Source: Escherichia coli (GTDB taxonomy: Bacteria > Pseudomonadota > Gammaproteobacteria > Enterobacterales > Enterobacteriaceae). From it: 64,000 nt of DNA. Position 1 is the first letter of the stretch. Every line of letters starts with the position of its first letter. The stretch lies in assembly GCF_044324875.1 (NCBI RefSeq), contig NZ_CP172185.1, one strand, 5' to 3'. Shown in pieces: positions 9,139-56,571 of this stretch. The position numbers were made by a program, and so were the translations under genes. The notes below the pieces were generated by a model that worked only from the letters and a program-made list of their open reading frames with translations, did no database searches and was not told the DNA's origin.

Positions 9139-10635
9139 ATGGCGAAAGAAAAAAAACGTGGCTTTTTTTCCTGGCTGGGCTTTGGTCAAAAAGAGCAGAC
9201 CCCGGAAAAAGAGACAGAAGTTCAGAATGAACAACCGGTTGTAGAAGAAATCGTTCCGGCGCAAGAGCCTGCGAAGGCTTCTGAACAAGCCGTTGAAGAG
9301 CAGCCGCAGGCGCATACTGAGGCCGAGGCGGAAACTTTTGCTGCCGACGTTGTGGAAGTCACTGAACAGGTTGCTGAAAGTGAAAAAGCGCAGCCTGAAG
9401 CGGAAGTCGTTGCACAGCCGGAACCGGTCGTAGAAGAAACGCCGGAGCCAGTGGCTATCGAGCGTGAAGAGCTGCCGTTGCCGGAAGACGTCAACGCCGA
9501 AGAGGTTTCGCCAGAAGAGTGGCAGGCCGAAGCGGAAACCGTAGAGATTGTCGAAGCGGCGGAAGAAGAAGCGGCTAAAGAAGAAATCACCGATGAAGAG
9601 CTGGAAGCACAGGCGCTGGCTGCCGAAGCAGCAGAAGAGGCGGTGATGGTGGTTCCTCCGGCAGAAGAAGAGCAGCCGGTGGAAGAAATCGCTCAGGAGC
9701 AGGAAAAACCGACCAAAGAAGGTTTCTTCGCGCGCCTGAAACGCAGCCTGTTAAAAACCAAAGAAAATCTCGGTTCCGGATTTATCAGCCTGTTCCGCGG
9801 TAAAAAAATCGACGATGATCTGTTTGAGGAGCTGGAAGAGCAGCTGTTGATCGCCGATGTGGGCGTGGAAACCACACGTAAAATTATCACCAATCTGACG
9901 GAAGGCGCATCCCGCAAGCAGCTTCGTGATGCCGAGGCGCTCTATGGCCTGCTGAAAGAAGAGATGGGTGAGATTCTGGCGAAAGTCGATGAGCCGCTGA
10001 ATGTTGAAGGTAAAACGCCGTTTGTGATCCTGATGGTGGGCGTCAACGGTGTGGGTAAAACCACGACGATTGGTAAGCTGGCACGTCAGTTTGAGCAGCA
10101 GGGTAAATCGGTGATGCTGGCGGCGGGCGATACTTTCCGTGCAGCAGCGGTTGAGCAGCTTCAGGTCTGGGGTCAGCGCAACAATATTCCGGTGATTGCA
10201 CAGCATACCGGGGCGGATTCCGCCTCTGTTATCTTCGACGCCATTCAGGCAGCTAAAGCGCGTAATATCGACGTCCTGATTGCCGATACCGCCGGACGCC
10301 TGCAGAACAAATCGCACCTGATGGAAGAGTTGAAGAAAATCGTCCGCGTGATGAAGAAACTCGACGTTGAAGCGCCGCATGAAGTTATGCTGACTATTGA
10401 TGCCAGCACCGGGCAGAACGCGGTAAGCCAGGCCAAACTGTTCCACGAAGCCGTTGGCTTAACCGGCATCACGCTAACGAAACTGGACGGCACGGCGAAA
10501 GGCGGGGTAATTTTCTCGGTGGCTGACCAGTTTGGTATCCCTATCCGCTACATTGGTGTCGGCGAACGTATTGAGGATTTGCGTCCGTTTAAGGCGGACG
10601 ACTTTATAGAGGCACTTTTTGCCCGAGAGGATTAA
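9139..10635 (+). CDS. ftsY: signal recognition particle receptor FtsY
   Basis: Acidic E/A-rich N-domain followed by SRP GTPase domain (GVNGVGKTT, DTAGR, TKLD). Confidence 0.95.
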   Translation: MAKEKKRGFFSWLGFGQKEQTPEKETEVQNEQPVVEEIVPAQEPAKASEQAVEEQPQAHTEAEAETFAADVVEVTEQVAESEKAQPEAEVVAQPEPVVEETPEPVAIEREELPLPEDVNAEEVSPEEWQAEAETVEIVEAAEEEAAKEEITDEELEAQALAAEAAEEAVMVVPPAEEEQPVEEIAQEQEKPTKEGFFARLKRSLLKTKENLGSGFISLFRGKKIDDDLFEELEEQLLIADVGVETTRKIITNLTEGASRKQLRDAEALYGLLKEEMGEILAKVDEPLNVEGKTPFVILMVGVNGVGKTTTIGKLARQFEQQGKSVMLAAGDTFRAAAVEQLQVWGQRNNIPVIAQHTGADSASVIFDAIQAAKARNIDVLIADTAGRLQNKSHLMEELKKIVRVMKKLDVEAPHEVMLTIDASTGQNAVSQAKLFHEAVGLTGITLTKLDGTAKGGVIFSVADQFGIPIRYIGVGERIEDLRPFKADDFIEALFARED

Positions 10636-28316: not shown

Positions 28317-28353
28317 GGTTAGCGGCCCTCTTCGTGGGAAGAGGGCCGTATTG

Positions 28354-28638
28354 TCAGGGCAAGCCGAAGGTAGCCTTTTTTATTTCATAATCCTGTAGAT
28401 ATTCTTCCAGCGGCTTTGCCGTTCCAAGGGAATGAATTTCACCACTGTCTTTATCAATAATAAAAGGTGCGTTACCGGCTAAGCGCGCGGCCTCATCACC
28501 AGATTCAAGAAATTCTTGTGATTCGAAACAGAAATACCAGCCCTGGCTAAAACGTCCATGCAGAGTGATGACGACAGGGAGATCTGCATCATCAAGGTAA
28601 TGGTTCGCTTTCGCGAATGCGTCGTGATAAGTAATCAT
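28354..28638 (-). CDS. yrhB: YrhB (94-aa protein reported as a small heat-stable chaperone)
   Basis: ORF MITYHDAFAKANHYLDD... recognised from memory as YrhB. Confidence 0.7.
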   Translation of the reverse strand: MITYHDAFAKANHYLDDADLPVVITLHGRFSQGWYFCFESQEFLESGDEAARLAGNAPFIIDKDSGEIHSLGTAKPLEEYLQDYEIKKATFGLP

Positions 28639-29087
28639 AATTATAATAAATATTATTGTTGAACGTTATATTATTATTCTTGCGTTATACTTTGAGAAAA
28701 GGCGTGTTCATCTTCGTCAAAGATATTATTAAATGCTGGTTTTGAAAAAAGTTCATCGGATAATATACAGTCACGAAATAAGTATCTGCTAATATTTTGT
28801 GATTTCTTTTTCAGAACGTCGAACGGGATTTTCTTATTTAAGATATCAGAATCTTATGATTCGGGTGAAATTCTAACTAAATCAACATGTCACTAAAATC
28901 ATCATAGCCATTAGCTATTTCGGCTAAAATAGAGATTACATGTCTTCGGTCCATCTCACTTAAGGAGTGTAGTTCCGTTGTAAGTTTTTCCATAGCTTGC
29001 ATTGCTAAGTTTCGAACAAGGAATTTTCTGCTGGTAATCTCTAAAAAGATGGCATGGTTTACAATGATTTTTGTTATCTTTTGATTA

Positions 29088-29582
29088 TTATGAACAACTG
29101 TCCATGATTTCGTTTAAGAATGAAGAGAAATCACTAAACGAACTGAATATATTTTCGGTGCCAATATTATCTCTAATTTCAAAAAAGTTATTTTTAATGT
29201 CATAAGTAAATATTGAAATGCTATCATCCCCGATCACTAACCGTTCTTGTAGATCAGGGTTTATGAAATCATCATTATTTCTATAAAATTCATTTACGGT
29301 AAAAAGGTTTTTAACTGAAGGTTCTGGAATCGAGAGGCTAAATAATCGTAATCCATTAACTTCGAATCCATCCATTGCTCTTAAAAAAGTAAGATAATCA
29401 GGTTGATTCTTAAAAAGAATACTAACTTCATTACATAACTTCTCCAGGCAATTAGTTGAATTAGAATTAAATTCTATTTGGATTATACTTTCAATAAATG
29501 ATTCCTTGAGCGGTGCTTCAAATGGATAGTCTAAATCATTCATCATTTTTTTTAATTTATTTATTTGGGTTTTAGTCATCAT
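29088..29582 (-). CDS. yrhA: YrhA, putative immunity protein for the YhhZ nuclease toxin (intact in this sequence)
   Basis: 164-aa ORF whose start overlaps the yhhZ stop (ATGA); AT-rich; toxin/immunity-type arrangement. Confidence 0.65.
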   Translation of the reverse strand: MMTKTQINKLKKMMNDLDYPFEAPLKESFIESIIQIEFNSNSTNCLEKLCNEVSILFKNQPDYLTFLRAMDGFEVNGLRLFSLSIPEPSVKNLFTVNEFYRNNDDFINPDLQERLVIGDDSISIFTYDIKNNFFEIRDNIGTENIFSSFSDFSSFLNEIMDSCS

Positions 29583-30757
29583 TTTGTGGGTTCCATAATA
29601 TTTTTCATGGGAGGATAAATTGAGCCAGATGGAATGGCCCAGGGAGTGATTTTGCTTTCACCTACTAATATTCCCTTAGCTATTCGTGATTGCATGTTAG
29701 TAAAAACTTTATGATATGGTTCGTTTTCGATTAATACTAAATTTTCGAAATCATTAGTACCACCATCATCTAGAGATAGTTTATGGTGAACATTATAATT
29801 TAGAGGAACATTGCCCTTTCTCATTCTTAAAAGGTCTTCGGCGTTGAATCTTCCAGATGCTTCGGAGGTTTTTGCAAGTTTGATAAGAAAATTTTTTCTT
29901 ACAGTTTTATTAAACTCCTTTCGTAAGTTAGCTAAGTCTTTTGAAGGTCTCTTAATGTATATTATTTCTATTATGTCTATACCATCAAGAAGTTTTTGTT
30001 GACCTCTAAGTTTGCCTAAATAACTATTTATTTCTGTATATGTATCAACATTAGAACGCTTTGTTAAAAGAATAGATGCTGTTGCTATCGCTATGCCCGC
30101 TGTTTTTTCATTTAGTATTTGATCATAGCCTTTTATTGCATCTCCACCCAGTTTTTCCGCAGTATCTCTGAATCCTTCAATGTTCCCATTGTATACGCCA
30201 CCAGCAGCAAGTAGCCTGCCAATAGCTTTGCTGTTTAACGTTTTGAAACGATTATTTGTTTGGTTTTTTGAATTTGGTAAAAACAAACGGTTATAATTTT
30301 CAGGGAGTGCCAAATAGCTGAACTCGGTATTTGCGATAAGATGTTGACAGAGGATAAATTCATAACTAACAGTTATTGTTTCTGTATCCAGTTGATTTTC
30401 AATGATCTGATGATGAATAGCCGATAAAAAAGCGCCTCTTAGTTGTATATAATAATACTTTTCCCATCTACCAAATCTATTGATTCTATAAAAGTCAAAT
30501 TCCATAAATAATTGCTCATTATTGTTAATGGAATTAATAAGTAATGGAGTGCTTTTATCAATTAATTTACAAAATGTCATACCCTGTAACTGTGAACCAA
30601 GTCCCGTATTAGTAATTCTATTTGCGAGTGAGAATGTAAATATTTCATCCTCATGCCCACTCTGCCAGCGATTACCTATAGATTCAGTAGTCCCACAACC
30701 TGCGGAGATGTTTCCTTGTTGTTCTCCCGTTACTGTCAGGTAAACAATATTACTCAT
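29579..30757 (-). CDS. yhhZ: YhhZ: Hcp-domain protein with C-terminal HNH nuclease motif (Hcp-ET-type putative T6SS effector)
   Basis: N-terminal Hcp-like region; C-terminal NVHHKLSLDDGGTNDFENLVLIENEPYHKV HNH motif; low GC. Confidence 0.75.
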   Translation of the reverse strand: MSNIVYLTVTGEQQGNISAGCGTTESIGNRWQSGHEDEIFTFSLANRITNTGLGSQLQGMTFCKLIDKSTPLLINSINNNEQLFMEFDFYRINRFGRWEKYYYIQLRGAFLSAIHHQIIENQLDTETITVSYEFILCQHLIANTEFSYLALPENYNRLFLPNSKNQTNNRFKTLNSKAIGRLLAAGGVYNGNIEGFRDTAEKLGGDAIKGYDQILNEKTAGIAIATASILLTKRSNVDTYTEINSYLGKLRGQQKLLDGIDIIEIIYIKRPSKDLANLRKEFNKTVRKNFLIKLAKTSEASGRFNAEDLLRMRKGNVPLNYNVHHKLSLDDGGTNDFENLVLIENEPYHKVFTNMQSRIAKGILVGESKITPWAIPSGSIYPPMKNIMEPTK

Positions 30758-46018: not shown

Positions 46019-48484
<2,466 letters not shown>

Positions 48485-48966
48485 GTTCGCAAAGTGGTAA
48501 CTGCCGTGTGTTCTCTTAAAGCTATCGTTAATGGGCACACGGCATTTTTATATCAGATAAACGATATGTCATGACAATTTACAGACAGTATCGATATATA
48601 ATTCATATTTATTAATTTTTAATAATGATTCTCATCTGAGTATGTATCATACAATAAGCATTATAAATAACTAATAAATTATTTATTATATTTATATATT
48701 GCCCCACTCTTCAGTTATCCTGTCTAAAATAAATCTCTTTGTTTTCAAATGACTGTATTTTTATATAAAGTCAATCATTGCGAGCATGGATTCTTTTAGT
48801 TATATTACCAAGCAGCTCATATAATATTTTCAAGCCATTCTATCTCTTATTTTTTCTGTGGTTAACTACACCAGCTTTATTCATTTAAATAATTTGACTT
48901 ATTAAAGCTGAATGTAAAAATAATCGCCAATATTGCTTGGATTTTTTAACAAAAGGAAAGGTATAA

Positions 48967-49671
48967 ATGAAATTCAATCTATCTAATTTATCCGCAGTTT
49001 TACTCGCATCAGGTATGCTGATGTCAACTGTAGTAACCGCTGCGCCAGGCGATGCATCACAATTTGGTGGTGCGGATACAGACTGGAGCACCGTTGATTA
49101 TCCAAAACTCACCGATATGGATAACAACACCGATGCGATGGGCGGAAACATCCGCTTTACTGGTCGTGTGGTTAAAGCGACGTGTAAGGTTGCTACAGAA
49201 TCGAAACAGATTGAAGTGGTACTGCCAGTCGTACCTTCTAACGCTTTCACGGGCATTGATACCGAAGCAACGGGTGCCAGTAACCAGACTGACTTCAACA
49301 TTAAACTGACTGATTGTAGCAATACGGACAGTCAAAATATTGAATTTCGTTTTACTGGCGTAGCAGACGGTGCCAACCAGACGCTTGCCAATGAAGTGGA
49401 AGGAGCTGCTGATGCTGATGGTACTGGCGAAGCGGGAGCTACGGGTGTAGGGATTCGTATTTATTCTAAAAACACGACAACTGATGGCCTGATTAAGCTG
49501 AACACACAAACTCCCCAGGGGAGTAGTTCTTCCGCAGCCTACGTGATTCCTGGCGATGCTGCCACTCATGATTTTACTGCGGCATTTACCGCGGGCTATG
49601 CTCAGAACGGTAGTACCGTTGCACCAGGTCTGGTGAAATCGACGGCAAGTTTCGTCGTGCTGTACGAATAA
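48967..49671 (+). CDS. fimbrial major-subunit-like protein (chaperone-usher pilin), unusually long
   Basis: Signal peptide, Cys pair, C-terminal donor-strand-like FVVLYE; first gene of cluster with RBS AAGGAAAGG. Confidence 0.7.
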   Translation: MKFNLSNLSAVLLASGMLMSTVVTAAPGDASQFGGADTDWSTVDYPKLTDMDNNTDAMGGNIRFTGRVVKATCKVATESKQIEVVLPVVPSNAFTGIDTEATGASNQTDFNIKLTDCSNTDSQNIEFRFTGVADGANQTLANEVEGAADADGTGEAGATGVGIRIYSKNTTTDGLIKLNTQTPQGSSSSAAYVIPGDAATHDFTAAFTAGYAQNGSTVAPGLVKSTASFVVLYE

Positions 49672-49791
49672 TTACAGCAAGATAATTTCAGGTTACAGTT
49701 ACTTGTAACCTGAAATTAATATTACATGTTTATTGTAATAAATAGACACGTATCAGTAATTAAAAATTAGTTTCATCTACAAGGATGCAGT

Positions 49792-50544
49792 ATGAGATGG
49801 ATTTCAAAAAATAAATGTTTTTCGAATAGAAACATTAATTCTTTGCTGAAGACCCAATATGTCATAAGGGCCGGTGCTCTATTTTTACTATCCGCCATAT
49901 CTATCAATGCTATTGCTGCGGGTGGCTTCGGTCTTGGTTCTACGCGTCTGGTTTATCCATCTGACAGTCAGCAAATTACGCTAAGTGTACAGAATGGTGG
50001 GGCTAACACCAGCTATTTAATCCAGTCATGGATTGATGACAATCAAAGCAGTAAAAAAAGTCAGGATTTTGTGGTTACGCCTCCTTTATTTATGTTACCA
50101 ACGCGAAAAGAAGCCTCATTGAGGATAATGTTTATTGGTAAATCACAGTTACCGACTGATCGCGAAACATTATTCTGGATGAATGTGAAAGCGATTCCGC
50201 CAACGGATGAGAAGAATACCCAGAAAAACACGTTACAACTGGCGTTACAAAACAGAATTAAATTATTTTACCGTCCGACTAATTTACCCGTTCAAGCTGG
50301 TAAAGCACGGGATATGCTGCGATTTAAATACGAAGGTAAACAGCTGAGAGTCATTAACCCTTCTCCCTATTATCTGACGGTGACTGGAATCAGGGTGCAA
50401 GGGGCAAAATTACCTAATGCGTTTGTTCCACCGAAAAGTGACGTAACAGTGTCTTCACCAGTGACGTTAGCCGGTGAAATTACTTATCAAACTATCAATG
50501 ATTACGGTGCCACAACGGCCAGGCAAAAGGGAACGTTGCAATAA
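49792..50544 (+). CDS. periplasmic fimbrial chaperone (PapD-like)
   Basis: Motifs TRLVYP, FVVTPPLF, LFWMNVKAIPP, NRIKLFYRP. Confidence 0.85.
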   Translation: MRWISKNKCFSNRNINSLLKTQYVIRAGALFLLSAISINAIAAGGFGLGSTRLVYPSDSQQITLSVQNGGANTSYLIQSWIDDNQSSKKSQDFVVTPPLFMLPTRKEASLRIMFIGKSQLPTDRETLFWMNVKAIPPTDEKNTQKNTLQLALQNRIKLFYRPTNLPVQAGKARDMLRFKYEGKQLRVINPSPYYLTVTGIRVQGAKLPNAFVPPKSDVTVSSPVTLAGEITYQTINDYGATTARQKGTLQ

Positions 50545-50585
50545 ACCTGGAAGATTAGAACGTTAAAGCAACTCAGGTCAGGGAT

Positions 50586-53177
50586 ATGAACCTAAAGCTC
50601 AAAAAACTCGAACACTGGATAGCAAGGCACAAGCAGATGGGACGGAGTATACCGCTCCTGCTCACACTTTTGCCTGCGTGTTCAGTGGCGGGTATGCGCT
50701 TTAACCCTGCATTCCTGTCGGGTGATACAGAAGCTGTTGCTGATTTATCTCGTTTTGAGAAAGGGATGACATATCTACCTGGTAGTTATGAGGTTGAAAT
50801 ATGGGTCAATGATTCGCCTTTGACATCACGTAAGGTTACTTTCAAAGCTGATGAGCAGAATCAGTTGATCCCCTGTTTTTCGCTCGATGAGTTAGTTACT
50901 TTAGGAATTAACAAAAGTGCATTGCCGGAACAGGCGCAAGCAGAGGGAAATAATTGTCTCGATTTACGTATATGGTTCGCAGAAGTTCAATACACTCCTG
51001 AACTGGATGCGCAACGACTCAAACTGACCTTTCCGCAGGCAATATTAAAGCATGAAGCCCGTGGTTATATTCCACCTGAGGAATGGGATAATGGTATCCC
51101 GGCCATTCTTATTAATTATGATTTTTCTGGCAACAGTGATCGTGGAGACTATGCGTCTGATAGTTATTATTTAAATCTCCGTTCAGGTTTAAATTTAGGG
51201 GCGTGGCGTTTTCGCGATTATTCTACATGGAGTCGTTCAGGTAATTCACCGGGTAAAATTGCACATGTGAGTAGTACGTTACAACGAGTAATTATTCCTT
51301 TTAAAAGTGAATTAACACTAGGTGATACCTGGTCTTCATCGGATGTTTTCGACAGTGTGAGTATTCGTGGTGCTAAACTTGAATCCGATGAAAACATGCT
51401 ACCCGATAGCCAAAGTGGTTTTGCCCCCACTGTGCGCGGTATTGCTAAAAGCAATGCTCAGGTAACGATCAAACAAAATGGCTATGTTATTTATCAGACA
51501 TATACTCCACCGGGACCCTTTGAAATCAACGATCTGAACCCTACGTCTTCCGCTGGGGATTTGGAAGTTACGATCAAAGAGTCTGATAATTCCGAAACTA
51601 TCTATACCATTCCTTACGCCGCTGTTCCCATTCTTCAACGCGAAGGGCATATTAAATATTCGGCAACTGCCGGTAAATATCGTAGCAATAGCTATAATCA
51701 AAACAGTCCGAATGTCTTTCAAGGAGATTTGATTTGGGGGTTACCCTGGGATATTACCGCCTACGGAGGGATGCAATACTCAAATAATTATCGGGCAATA
51801 GCACTCGGGCTTGGGTTCAACCTTGGTATGTTTGGTGCGACGTCATTTGATTTAACGCAAGCCAATAGCACGCTTGCCGATGGCAGTAAACATCAAGGGC
51901 AATTGTACCGTTTCCTATATTCAAAATCGTTAGTGCAGACAGGTACGGCTTTTCAGATTATTGGTTATCGCTATTCGACGGAGGGATTTTATTCGTTGAG
52001 TGATACCACATACAAACAAATGTCGGGTACGGTTATCGATCCAGATACCCTTAATGAAAAAGACTATGTTTATAACTGGAATGATTTTTATAATTTACGT
52101 TATAACAAAAGAGGAAAGTTTCAGGCAAATATATCGCAACCATTGGGCGAATATGGCTCTATGTATTTGGCGGCAAGTCAACAAACTTACTGGAATACGA
52201 ATAATAAAGATACCTTGTATCAGGTCGGCTATAATACGAGTGTACATGGGATTTATTTAAATATTGCTTATAATTATAGTAAGTCACCAGGTTCAGATGC
52301 GGACAGAATCTTATCCGTAAATGTCTCATTGCCGATCAGCAATTGGTTATCACTAGCTGTCGATGGGCGTACTGCGACAAATTCTATGACAGCAACTTAT
52401 GGTTATAGTCAGGATAATAGCGGTCATGTAAATCAGTATGCCGGAGTATCTGGATCGCTGCTGGAACAACATAATCTCAACTATAATATTCAACAAAATT
52501 TTGCCAACCAGAATAATGGCGAAAATGGCTCGGTAGGGATAAATTACCGTGGTACATATGGTTCACTAAATTCTGGATACAGCTACGATAATAATGGTAA
52601 CCAGCAATTTAACTATGGTTTAAGTGGTGCCCTGGTTATTCACGAAAATGGTCTCACGTTAAGCCAGCCGTTAGGAGAAACAAATATACTGATAAAAGCA
52701 CCTGGGGCAAACAATGTAAATGTGGAACGCGGAACGGGGGTTAAAACAGACTGGCGTGGCTATGCTGTCGTACCTTATGCCACGGAATATCGGCGTAATA
52801 ATATCTCTTTAGACCCTATGTCTATGAGTATGCATACAGAATTAGATGCTACTACTATGGAAGTGATACCCAGCAAAGGTGCTTTAGTTCGTGCTGAGTT
52901 TAATGCACATGTCGGTATTCGAGGTTTATTTAATGTTCACTATCGTAATAAACCAGTTCCATTTGGTGCGACGGTCAGTGTACCCACTGAGGGGACAACT
53001 CAGATTACAGGAATAGTGGGTGACAGTGGGCAGGTTTATCTCTCCGGTTTGCCTTTACAAGGCATAATAAATATACAGTGGGGAGAAAGTGCTTATCAGC
53101 AATGTCGGGCAAGTTATCAATTACCGAAAAGCGAACTGGATAATGCCATTAGCTATGCAAATCTGGAGTGCCGCTAA
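50586..53177 (+). CDS. outer-membrane fimbrial usher
   Basis: 863 aa, usher-typical size and beta-rich N/Y/S/G content; located after the chaperone gene. Confidence 0.85.
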   Translation: MNLKLKKLEHWIARHKQMGRSIPLLLTLLPACSVAGMRFNPAFLSGDTEAVADLSRFEKGMTYLPGSYEVEIWVNDSPLTSRKVTFKADEQNQLIPCFSLDELVTLGINKSALPEQAQAEGNNCLDLRIWFAEVQYTPELDAQRLKLTFPQAILKHEARGYIPPEEWDNGIPAILINYDFSGNSDRGDYASDSYYLNLRSGLNLGAWRFRDYSTWSRSGNSPGKIAHVSSTLQRVIIPFKSELTLGDTWSSSDVFDSVSIRGAKLESDENMLPDSQSGFAPTVRGIAKSNAQVTIKQNGYVIYQTYTPPGPFEINDLNPTSSAGDLEVTIKESDNSETIYTIPYAAVPILQREGHIKYSATAGKYRSNSYNQNSPNVFQGDLIWGLPWDITAYGGMQYSNNYRAIALGLGFNLGMFGATSFDLTQANSTLADGSKHQGQLYRFLYSKSLVQTGTAFQIIGYRYSTEGFYSLSDTTYKQMSGTVIDPDTLNEKDYVYNWNDFYNLRYNKRGKFQANISQPLGEYGSMYLAASQQTYWNTNNKDTLYQVGYNTSVHGIYLNIAYNYSKSPGSDADRILSVNVSLPISNWLSLAVDGRTATNSMTATYGYSQDNSGHVNQYAGVSGSLLEQHNLNYNIQQNFANQNNGENGSVGINYRGTYGSLNSGYSYDNNGNQQFNYGLSGALVIHENGLTLSQPLGETNILIKAPGANNVNVERGTGVKTDWRGYAVVPYATEYRRNNISLDPMSMSMHTELDATTMEVIPSKGALVRAEFNAHVGIRGLFNVHYRNKPVPFGATVSVPTEGTTQITGIVGDSGQVYLSGLPLQGIINIQWGESAYQQCRASYQLPKSELDNAISYANLECR

Positions 53178-53740
53178 TGAATATATTACAAAAATTTATT
53201 CTATTAATGTTTAGATCATTGTTCATGATGGTGATTTCATATAACGCACTGGCTAACGATACTGTAGTGGTCACATTTACAGGACAATTATTAGCAAAAA
53301 CGTGTGATATTACAACTGGAAGTAAAGACCAGCCAGTAAACATGGGAACTTATGACGTCAATGATTTTTTGAATGTAGGGGATGTTTCTGGCAGCCATAC
53401 ATTTACGATCAATCTGGAAGGATGTCCTACAACAACCAGTACTGTTTATAGTTCAGGAGTAAGTGCTAATGTGCAGTTTACCGGGGATGCTGATGCTATA
53501 AATACCACTTTATTACGCCTTACTTCCAGCGCGGATAGTGCAACTGGAGTGGGCATCGAAATTTTAGACAGTAATGATAAAATTATAGCAATTAATAGTG
53601 AGTCAGGATTCAAAGAGTTAATTTTAAATAATAATGGCGATGCCAGTTTAACCTTTAAACTCCGCTATAAGTCAACTCAGCAAAACGTACATGCGGGACA
53701 GGCGAACGCACTATTGTACTTTGATATAGACTATCAGTGA
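53168..53740 (+). CDS. fimbrial minor subunit
   Basis: ~185 aa, Cys pair (CDIT...CPTT), C-terminal YFDIDYQ. Confidence 0.75.
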   Translation: MPLMNILQKFILLMFRSLFMMVISYNALANDTVVVTFTGQLLAKTCDITTGSKDQPVNMGTYDVNDFLNVGDVSGSHTFTINLEGCPTTTSTVYSSGVSANVQFTGDADAINTTLLRLTSSADSATGVGIEILDSNDKIIAINSESGFKELILNNNGDASLTFKLRYKSTQQNVHAGQANALLYFDIDYQ

Positions 53741-53747
53741 GGTTAAT

Positions 53748-54272
53748 ATGACACGATATTGGAATTTAATTGCCCTATTATTCTCTGTGATATCTATGTC
53801 ATCCATTGCTGATGATACAACACATACAGGTGTTGTACGTATAGAAGGAATCATAACGGCAAAGACTTGTATTGTTGCCGATGAATCTAAAAATTTCACA
53901 GTTAACATGCCTGATGTTCCCAGCTATATGGTGAGAAATTCAGGGAGTGTTACTGAAAAAATTGGTTTCTCTGTAAAGTTAACCCGTTGTGGCAGTGATG
54001 TCAGTCATGCCAATGTCACGTTTGATGGAATACCAGTTAGTGAAGACGCAGCCCTATATAAACTGGAAGAGGGCTCAGTCGATGGGTTAGCACTGGCTAT
54101 TTTTGATAACAACAGACAAAGTATTAGTAATGGTATAAAGAGTACAAGTTATGCCCTTACACCATTGGTAGATAATACATTGCATTTCTCTGCTGCTTAT
54201 AAAGCTATAAAAAATGATGTACAACCAGGAGATGCGAATGCATCAGTTTCCTTTATCGTCACTTATGATTAA
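53748..54272 (+). CDS. fimbrial minor subunit
   Basis: 174 aa, signal peptide, Cys pair, C-terminal SFIVTYD. Confidence 0.75.
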   Translation: MTRYWNLIALLFSVISMSSIADDTTHTGVVRIEGIITAKTCIVADESKNFTVNMPDVPSYMVRNSGSVTEKIGFSVKLTRCGSDVSHANVTFDGIPVSEDAALYKLEEGSVDGLALAIFDNNRQSISNGIKSTSYALTPLVDNTLHFSAAYKAIKNDVQPGDANASVSFIVTYD

Positions 54273-55014
54273 CGTGCTGATATGCATTTTAATATGTTGC
54301 ACAAATGCGCAGGCAGGAGTTGTTGTTGGCGGTACTCGTTTTGTTTACCCAGAAAAGCAGTCATCAATTTCGGTCGAGCTTAAAAATACTGCCAGTAAAG
54401 ATATGCTGGTTAAAATTTCCGTGACACCTGATGATGGACGTCAGTTAAAAGGGACACTGGAATCCCAGCCTTTACTTCCAGATAAGGCGTTTATTGCCAC
54501 ACCACCATTATTGGTACTTAAACAAGATAAAAATACCAAAATAAGAATCAATCGCGTGGGGGGGCAGTTACCTATAGATCGTGAGAGTTTATTTATACTG
54601 AATATTGCAGCGTTACCTGCTCAGGAACAAAACTCACAGCTTAAGAATGAAAATCAACTCCAGGTGGCTGTACGTAATAGGATGAAAATATTTTACCGCC
54701 CAGAGACGTTATCAGGTAATCCACTTGACGCTTATCAACAGTTACGCTGGTCGCGAAAGAATGAAGCTGTCACCGTTTTTAACCCTACGCCCTGGTATGT
54801 GACACTCTATAATTTATCTATTGATGGTAAAAGCATAAATGGTGGCATGGTTGCACCGTTTAGTCATCGCCAACAGGATTGGTGTCAGCGGCAAGGATAT
54901 TGTGAGATTAACTGGCAAACACTAGATCTTTACAATAATGCCTTACCCGTATGGAGCGTAAAATTAAATGTTTTACAAAATAATGTGATGAGTGCAGTAG
55001 CGATACATGGATAA
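54238..55014 (+). CDS. second periplasmic fimbrial chaperone
   Basis: Motifs TRFVYP, FIATPPLL, LFILNIAALPA, NRMKIFYRP; start uncertain (ORF opens at 54214). Confidence 0.8.
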   Translation: MHQFPLSSLMINVLICILICCTNAQAGVVVGGTRFVYPEKQSSISVELKNTASKDMLVKISVTPDDGRQLKGTLESQPLLPDKAFIATPPLLVLKQDKNTKIRINRVGGQLPIDRESLFILNIAALPAQEQNSQLKNENQLQVAVRNRMKIFYRPETLSGNPLDAYQQLRWSRKNEAVTVFNPTPWYVTLYNLSIDGKSINGGMVAPFSHRQQDWCQRQGYCEINWQTLDLYNNALPVWSVKLNVLQNNVMSAVAIHG

Positions 55015-56158
55015 CTGGAGAAGCATGATGCTTACTTATTTTTGGGGAAATATAAAAGCAATTTGTATATTGTTTGTTCTTTTAGTCAGTAGCTGCTATA
55101 ACATAGTATATGCTGAAGATATGGGACGGGATCGCGCCTTTTGTTATCCTGGTGCACCAGGTAATAATACTACTCCTGCGACATTTTCTTATAATTTTGG
55201 TACGGTAATTGTCTCAGATGTTAATAATAATTCGCCTGGGACAGTATTACCCTCGCAGGACTGGAAAATAGGGCATTATAAGGCTTATTGTAATTCTCTG
55301 GATGATTATGAGGTTTATTTTTCTGGTGTTTCTGGGATTGATCCGTCAGGAGCGTCTGGTGATCATCAGGGGAGCGATATATTTATTCCTTTGACTCATG
55401 AAATATCTGTCTCGACACATGTAAAGCTCTATAATAAAAATGGCACAATGACAGATAAGGCAGTACCTTTTGACAACTATAGCACCAATTATCCAGCAGA
55501 CAGAAGTAAACCATCAAGTTGGGCCTCAGGAACAGAAGGTTATATAAAAATCAGACTTGATAAAAAAATAATATCCGATATATCAATAAATAACGTATTG
55601 CTGGTTTCTTTGTATGTCAGCCAGTTTCCAACAGAGCACGGACCAATTCCAGTATTTAATGCTTATATTGGCAACTTAAATATTGAAGTTCCACAAGGTT
55701 GCACAATTAATGAGGGAACTAGTTTTACCGTTAATATGCCGGATGTCTGGGCCAGCGAATTAAGTCGGGCTGGTGCTGGAGTGAAGCCCACGGGCGTTTC
55801 TCCAGTGGCAACCACTATTCCGATAAACTGTACGAACAAAGATATTGATGCCGTAATGACGCTGGTTTTTGATGGCAATATTTCATCAACGAGAGATGTT
55901 AATGGTCGGCAAAGCATTATTCAGGCGGAGGATAACCCCGACGTTGGTATTATGATTATGGATAGCCAACAGGAATCCGTAGACTTGAACGCTCTTGCTG
56001 CGCATGTTGGTGTGCCATTTAAGTTAGTTGAAAACCGGGCTGAGTCAGCTCAGACGGCAGATGTGACTTTTCTGTCTCTCCCTGTAAGTACCACAGGGCG
56101 ACGCCCTGCTGCGGGTCGTTATAATGCCCTGGCTGTTTTGCGGGTGGAATACCAGTGA
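55007..56158 (+). CDS. putative fimbrial tip adhesin (two-domain pilin-like protein)
   Basis: 383 aa, signal peptide, C-terminal pilin-like domain ending VLRVEYQ; last gene of cluster. Confidence 0.65.
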   Translation: MDNWRSMMLTYFWGNIKAICILFVLLVSSCYNIVYAEDMGRDRAFCYPGAPGNNTTPATFSYNFGTVIVSDVNNNSPGTVLPSQDWKIGHYKAYCNSLDDYEVYFSGVSGIDPSGASGDHQGSDIFIPLTHEISVSTHVKLYNKNGTMTDKAVPFDNYSTNYPADRSKPSSWASGTEGYIKIRLDKKIISDISINNVLLVSLYVSQFPTEHGPIPVFNAYIGNLNIEVPQGCTINEGTSFTVNMPDVWASELSRAGAGVKPTGVSPVATTIPINCTNKDIDAVMTLVFDGNISSTRDVNGRQSIIQAEDNPDVGIMIMDSQQESVDLNALAAHVGVPFKLVENRAESAQTADVTFLSLPVSTTGRRPAAGRYNALAVLRVEYQ

Positions 56159-56571
56159 TGTGTGAGTCAGTGCAGAATCGGATTAGCCCGTTTTTAGCCA
56201 TCGGTAGGGTAAAGTTTGATGGAAAATATGGGTTATGTGCCGATGTATCCCACAATGAAATAACCCTCGAGGGAAAGGAATCAGCGCGATGAACAAATTC
56301 ACGGTGTTTTGCTGCTAGGTGTGGTATTTCTCGGCTTTATTATTGTACCGTTCTTGATATGGCCGACGGTGGTTGCGCTGGCTGCTTGTATTATTACGCT
56401 GAGTTTTCTGGGGAGATACTGTTCTCTATCCCGCTCATGATCAGGCGTATTTCACTTCTGGAATTACAACTTTGGTTATCGGTTGTATATGCGCTTTGTC
56501 CATGCCGGATGCGACGTGAACGTCTTATTGGTCTACAAAATCATGCAAATTCAATATATTGCATAAACCAC

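Follow-up and report, generated by a model that had tools for sequence, protein, structure and literature searches.

What controls the expression of a fimbrial operon that directly follows glgP in the 64,000-nucleotide stretch of Escherichia coli DNA analysed here (the window): a dedicated on-off switch, a general silencing mechanism, or nothing in particular? The gap between the two spans 482 bp (48485-48966), and the first-pass annotation, which had described about 480 bp of very AT-rich DNA at this place, was right in the coordinates, the flanking genes, and the composition. The GC fraction of the gap is 0.274 vs 0.507 for the whole window, a difference far beyond chance; 482-bp windows that are equally AT-rich amount to 0.13% of the 64 kb, and the lowest value in the entire window, 0.255, is reached inside the gap. 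The description of the entire gap as a leader was correct in so far as it is a regulatory region upstream of a fimbrial operon, but its first ~65 nt are the rho-independent terminator of glgP and are not part of the leader. Without the terminator (after the first 68 nt), the GC fraction of the gap is 0.249. Four parts can be distinguished, namely the terminator, ~210 bp of unconserved DNA, a conserved block of ~70 bp, and a putative 5'UTR of ~135 nt (Table 1). Apart from the gap, a single stretch of the window is strongly AT-rich (GC<0.33 in 482-bp windows); it lies at about 28350-30750 and corresponds to yrhB-yrhD-yrhA-tssD(yhhZ) as assigned by presumed collinearity with strain Ecol_316.

Table 1. 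Features of the region between glgP and the end of the fimbrial operon (positions in the window; a dot marks features given without a strand)
Feature	Position	Strand	Description
glgP (glycogen phosphorylase)	46037-48484	+	Last core gene before the island; Pfam Phosphorylase PF00343, E=0; named glgP in identical RefSeq loci
Rho-independent glgP terminator (predicted)	48502-48549	+	12-bp stem 48502-48513/48533-48544, inner helix, U5 at 48545-48549
Distal AT-rich stretch	48550-48764	.	~25% GC (0.22-0.25), sequence not conserved; proposed site of H-NS nucleation and silencing
Counterpart of 29-nt AT-rich motif (proposed TosR site)	48578-48606	+	Mapped by alignment with the CFT073 leader
Palindrome TAATAAATTATTTATTA	48672-48688	.	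17 nt with 8-nt arms and 1-nt centre; judged a chance feature
Conserved block, putative core promoter	48765-48834	+	73-83% identity to the B2 allele vs ~50% in the flanks
Candidate P1	-35 TTGCGA 48778-48783; -10 TATATT 48801-48806	+	17-bp spacer; consensus scan
Candidate P2	-10 TATAAT 48820-48825	+	Perfect -10, weak -35; the same in 12 leaders drawn from both alleles
T-tract (T6 in the window)	48850-48855	+	In putative 5'UTR; length varies among same-allele genomes
Translation-initiation block	48931-48990	+	93-97% identity to B2; Shine-Dalgarno (SD) AAGGAAAGG 48953-48961, ATG 48967
Degraded NsrR-like 11-1-11 repeat	48958-48980		Overlaps aufA SD and start codon; B2 counterpart at L002 about 9195-9217
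aufABCDEFG-type operon	48967-56158	+	Pfam Fimbrial, PapD, and Usher; gene order and glgP-glpD site match auf

The first fimbrial gene encodes a 234-residue protein with the Pfam Fimbrial domain. According to the Pfam assignments, this major subunit is followed by a chaperone, an 863-residue usher, two minor subunits, a second chaperone, and a 383-residue adhesin-like subunit, which is the seven-gene order subunit-chaperone-usher-subunit-subunit-chaperone-adhesin of auf. The roles of the auf genes are given in PMC5956150, and aufABCDEFG of strain CFT073 corresponds to c4214-c4207 (Buckles et al. 2004, cited in PMC5956150). Many RefSeq genomes of E. coli match the 701 bp around the gap at 100% identity, and in an identical RefSeq locus the operon sits between glgP and glpD, the insertion site at which an operon named auf has been placed (glpD..glgP, PMC12928451). 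A database entry 97% identical to the AufA of the window carries the name 'Auf fimbriae major fimbrial subunit AufA'. Judged by its domain order, insertion site, and similarity, the operon in the window is auf, present as a divergent, non-B2 allele with a nucleotide identity of ~74-77% to the operon of UTI89. The locus itself is thus already known, and its leader is of a familiar kind.

Homology to K-12 stops at 48488, placing the left edge of an island 4 bp past the glgP stop codon, and restarts at 56490, so that the island is ~8 kb long; at the same position, K-12 has a different glgP terminator and yzgL. The island, which is horizontally acquired, was found in 786 of 5426 complete E. coli genomes and is missing from K-12. 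In a search for the leader, two alleles were distinguished. A match of at least 95% across the whole leader was found in 227 of the 5426 genomes, while in another 558, including UTI89, Nissle, NC101, and clone D i14, the match is limited to the promoter-proximal ~200 bp, at ~74% identity. The enteroaggregative strain 042 carries the auf allele of the window. The coding genes share about 69-77% of their nucleotides with those of UTI89, and the amino acid identity is 83% for AufA, 77% for AufB, 80% for AufC, 73% for AufD, 68% for AufE, and 64% for AufF.

The two alleles, that of the window and that of CFT073 and UTI89 (B2), have in common the glgP-glpD site, the seven-gene order, a leader of similar length (482 bp in the window vs 493 bp), the architecture of the terminator hairpin, the block with the invariant TATAAT, and an almost identical ribosome-binding block. 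They differ in the distal part of the leader (280 bp), which is essentially unalignable, in the placement of a T-tract, in an NsrR-like site that is weakened in the allele of the window, and in the region downstream of aufG. There, B2 strains have three hypothetical genes, absent or present as remnants in the window, at the place where K-12 has yzgL; between aufG and the restart of K-12 homology (56159-56489), the window holds gene remnants only, annotated as a frameshifted hypothetical gene in an identical RefSeq locus. A search for a regulator among the B2 genes downstream of aufG found no Pfam domains in the two that were scanned. Pseudogenes of auf are frequent in RefSeq genomes: ETEC6333 has a truncated aufA (L004 709-1008), SCU-485 a frameshifted one (L013 706-1205), and the UTI89 record examined a frameshifted aufG (L002 15238-16358).

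Within the operon, the aufA-aufB intergenic region (49672-49791) contains, just past the aufA stop codon, a perfect 16-bp stem with a 4-nt loop (49683-49718). The z-score of its predicted fold is -4.6, and the hairpin is also present in the UTI89 allele (z=-5.6). Since no U-run follows the stem, the hairpin is likely to stabilise the mRNA or to attenuate transcription, and in this way would set the ratio of the major subunit to the assembly proteins. A hairpin with such a role occurs in other fimbrial operons.

The hairpin at the beginning of the gap is of a different kind. The RNA folds with a predicted energy of -20.6 kcal/mol (z=-2.8), and its counterpart in the B2 allele adopts the same fold (-26.1 kcal/mol, z=-5.0) with a compensatory change from G:C to A:U. 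The modelled fold and the covariation show a structure that would end the transcription of glgP and that is supplied by the island. Such a terminator would insulate the auf promoter from glgP read-through.

Farther downstream, conservation between the two alleles is concentrated in the promoter and ribosome-binding blocks. The region 48835-48890 is poorly conserved, and it is followed by a conserved block (48891-48990) with identity rising to 97% around the SD and the start codon. We infer that the block at 48765-48834 is a sigma-70 core promoter, with P1 or P2 as the candidates; the choice between them, as well as the length of the UTR, are guesses, and promoter-like consensus matches number five in the gap vs 4.2 in shuffles. 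The putative 5'UTR would end in the conserved purine-rich SD block. Two GGA motifs lie ~17 nt apart in this block, and a role for CsrA is only a thought.

Two distant relatives, obtained by protein search followed by look-up of the contigs, extend this comparison. In Citrobacter freundii, an auf-like operon (AufA 77% identical) follows an ABC-transporter cluster and has a ~1-kb, partly AT-rich leader (L014 2951-4001), while in the metagenome contig L018 (1-1601; AufA 71% identical) an auf-like operon lies directly after glgP and a terminator of its own, which suggests that the same insertion site was used in another lineage. The motif ACAAAAGGAAAGGTA is invariant in both, and GCTTGGATTTT, located just upstream of it, is conserved in C. 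freundii too; together with the first codons, these are the only parts of the leader that are conserved at such distance. The exact pattern of the ribosome-binding block had no match in GTDB species genomes, and a peptide scan of the same genomes based on AufA gave 107 pattern matches, none of which was confirmed.

The distal stretch, in turn, retains composition but not sequence. Its identity to the B2 allele is ~45-60%, near random for unrelated AT-rich DNA, and in the auf-like leader of C. freundii a GC content of 22-27% is kept while sequence similarity is lost. This is the pattern that would be expected of nucleoid-protein binding rather than of specific operators, and the leader is AT-rich, horizontally acquired DNA over several hundred base pairs, as is typical of targets of xenogeneic silencing. 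We consider it probable that an ordinary sigma-70 promoter is here subject to silencing and anti-silencing of the H-NS type, with no dedicated phase-variation device. H-NS, with StpA and related proteins, would nucleate on the ~210 bp of distal DNA and spread across the promoter, and such coverage would keep auf almost silent in standard culture. Antagonists that bind AT tracts, such as TosR of the PapB family, as well as a higher temperature, might then relieve the silencing, as the literature on the B2 allele suggests. Nucleoid-protein silencing had been proposed for this leader in the first-pass annotation, and the proposal fits the composition, the island origin, and the behaviour of auf in B2 strains, although the high-affinity motif of H-NS is not enriched: with up to two mismatches, TCGATAAATT has two matches (48576-48585 and 48591-48600) vs 1.73 ± 1.31 in shuffles. 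We found no published H-NS ChIP or hns-mutant results on auf for any strain.

All results on auf expression come from the B2 allele, the distal leader of which is essentially unrelated in sequence to that of the window. When TosR is overproduced, aufA rises by a log2 of 5.3 and is among the most strongly induced genes (PMC5956150). The authors describe TosR as the first regulator linked to auf, leave it unclear whether the effect is direct, and propose that TosR counteracts H-NS/Lrp (PMC5956150). A TosR motif, TTAATATATACCATTAATATATATTAAAT, was predicted 360 bp upstream of aufA in CFT073 (Table S2 in PMC5956150); its counterpart in the window reads TTTACAGACAGTATCGATATATAATTCAT and is partly conserved. 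Expression of auf in vitro is poor: it rises from 23 °C to 37 °C, and is very low at both temperatures (PMC12890032). In human serum, auf was the sole fimbrial system described as downregulated in the ExPEC strains CFT073 and EC958 (PMC13245861).

Cryptic chaperone-usher operons of E. coli are generally repressed by H-NS (PMC3559732), among them those behind the silenced fimbrial promoters of K-12 (Korea et al. 2010, ref. 35 in PMC3559732). The auf locus shares with the latter a long and very AT-rich leader, a poorly expressed operon, and a cluster that lacks a regulator gene. It differs in that, for auf, we infer the dependence on H-NS from the AT-rich composition, the island origin, and the expression behaviour of the B2 allele. 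The leader of the sister operon elfA (ycb) of K-12 was tried as a relative and rejected, as it shows no similarity; ElfA is 31% identical to AufA.

The leader might instead be a neutral AT-rich spacer left by the insertion of the island, with a weak constitutive promoter and no special regulation. Such a spacer would agree with the lack of conservation in the distal 210 bp, with the auf pseudogenes present in several genomes, and with the scans for transcription factors, in which no consensus is enriched in the gap. Matches to the consensus sequences of H-NS, Lrp, IHF, CRP, Fis, Fur, RcsB, CpxR, and OmpR, as well as to the Pap GATC box and GATC pairs of the OxyR type, are all within the expectation from shuffles. 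A search of Rfam with 48300-49200 at E≤1 returned no matches, and none of the small open reading frames within the gap exceeds 36 residues or is supported. A spacer free of function, however, would not be expected to remain AT-rich in lineages in which its sequence has fully diverged, and the expression of the B2 allele clearly depends on conditions, so that we regard this explanation as unlikely.

A more specific alternative places the control at the other end of the leader, where NsrR, the NO-sensing repressor, would bind a repeat over the SD and the start codon and repress auf until NO is present. A ChIP-seq peak of NsrR in CFT073 is centred 3 bp from the start of c4214, where the 11-1-11 repeat predicted in that study corresponds to AAGGTATAAATGAAATTCAATTT in reverse complement (PMC5320621), and this position coincides with the most conserved part of the leader. 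The gene c4214 is aufA, a link from the peak to auf that PMC5320621 itself does not draw. We scored both sites with a position weight matrix derived from the remaining ChIP-positive sites of that paper. The B2 site reaches 14.5 bits and falls among the verified sites (12.2-30.9), whereas the site in the window scores 8.8 bits, below every ChIP-verified site and at a level reached by 42% of shuffles. The drop is due to a synonymous change of TTA to CTA. Moreover, c4214 is absent from the nitrate/NO-responsive genes named in PMC5320621, and the SD together with the signal-peptide codons would suffice to explain the conservation of the block. Control by NsrR appears weakened at best in this allele, and as an account of the leader it is somewhat less probable still than a neutral spacer.

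The T-tract offers another possible mechanism, in which slippage between T6, T7, and T8 would alter expression heritably, either through pairing of the UTR with the SD or through the spacing of a promoter on the minus strand. Three length classes are found by exact matches among the 227 genomes with this allele, T6 in 49, T7 in 139, and T8 in 33. By comparison, a control block of 62 bp with a further T6 as well as an A5 had 227 exact matches, equal to the number of same-allele genomes and consistent with its being invariant in this allele; the variation of the T-tract is therefore not generic homopolymer noise. T7 and T8 each recur on at least two haplotype backgrounds, one genome differs from the 407-bp leader query of the window by T7 alone, and a separate tract, T8/T9, is polymorphic in the B2 allele ~30 nt downstream. 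Fold predictions for the 5'UTR have the T6/T7/T8 tract paired with the SD. Yet it is short for a phase-variable homopolymer, and its position ~25 nt downstream of the conserved -10 places it outside the spacer of the plus-strand promoter. The only spacer in which it falls belongs to a promoter-like match on the minus strand (TTAACC-17-TAGAAT, 48865-48837), which is not conserved in B2; the 17 nt of this spacer with T6 would become 18 or 19 with T7 or T8. The predicted fold of the 5'UTR is no better than that of shuffles (z=-0.6), and the predicted accessibility of the SD (0.17-0.29) changes little and non-monotonically with tract length. The length is also largely tied to flanking SNPs, T6 being linked mostly to three of them, so that the variation is mostly structured by lineage. 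Regulation by slippage is accordingly very unlikely in our estimate, and we would give even less credence to the full form of the idea, in which the T-tract acts as a slipped-strand 'rheostat' that tunes the output of Auf fimbriae heritably between lineages.

An invertible promoter of the fimS type would need a recombinase from another part of the genome to invert it, since the domains found on the island are only fimbrial, chaperone, and usher, with glgP and glpD as the flanking genes. The locus resembles fimS in having a promoter upstream of the major-subunit gene between short inverted repeats: a perfect 10-nt repeat (48676-48685 and 48886-48895) encloses 200 bp in which the conserved promoter block lies, and the repeats of fimS itself are only 9 bp. 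An inverted repeat of at least 10 nt at that spacing is nevertheless present in 29% of dinucleotide shuffles (P=0.29), both arms lack conservation in the B2 allele, and the leader is collinear over at least 80% of the query, in a single orientation, in all 227 same-allele assemblies. The first-pass annotation, which had seen neither a recombinase nor long inverted repeats and had regarded an invertible switch as unsupported, is borne out by the absence of a recombinase from the island, by a best flanking repeat of 10 nt at chance level, and by this comparison of orientation. We regard inversion as highly improbable.

The palindromes in the leader had also been pointed out in that annotation as possible motifs. 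The quoted AATAAATTATTTATT is present, at 48673-48687, but a functional role for it finds no support, as it is at chance level and not conserved in B2. There are three perfect palindromes with arms of at least 6 nt, vs 1.46 ± 1.37 in 1000 dinucleotide shuffles (P=0.20), and an arm of at least 8 nt appears in 13% of the shuffles (P=0.13). A 39-bp imperfect palindrome (48872-48910) was rejected as a candidate, being weakened by two SNPs within the allele and absent from the B2 allele.

The methylation-based control that had been judged plausible at first reading, in the form of a Pap-like epigenetic switch with Lrp and Dam competing at two GATC sites upstream of the promoter, can practically be dismissed: while such switches are widespread among pap/sfa/foc/clp-type fimbrial operons, and the leader resembles the pap region in its ~400 bp of AT-rich DNA upstream of the major-subunit gene and in the effect of the PapB-family TosR on B2 auf, it lacks any GATC from 48471 to 50157 (~1.7 kb), so that a Dam/Lrp switch cannot operate, as well as papI/papB-like open reading frames (the largest in the gap has 36 residues) and any enrichment of Lrp motifs (three consensus matches, below the 4.3 expected from shuffles).

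The leader in the window is of the AT-rich kind typically located upstream of horizontally acquired fimbrial operons, and silencing and anti-silencing of an ordinary promoter remains the reading that we favour for it. The regulation of auf is nearly uncharacterised, with TosR as its sole published regulator, and in this respect the results are of modest value. The conserved promoter and ribosome-binding blocks have been mapped, switches based on Dam and on inversion are removed from consideration for the auf leader, and an NsrR ChIP peak at c4214 that had gone unremarked is now tied to auf. The difference between the alleles, as well as the polymorphic T-tract, are brought out as leads on the regulation of auf; if the T-tract did act as a rheostat, it would represent a mode of fimbrial variation undescribed for the chaperone-usher operons of E. 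coli.
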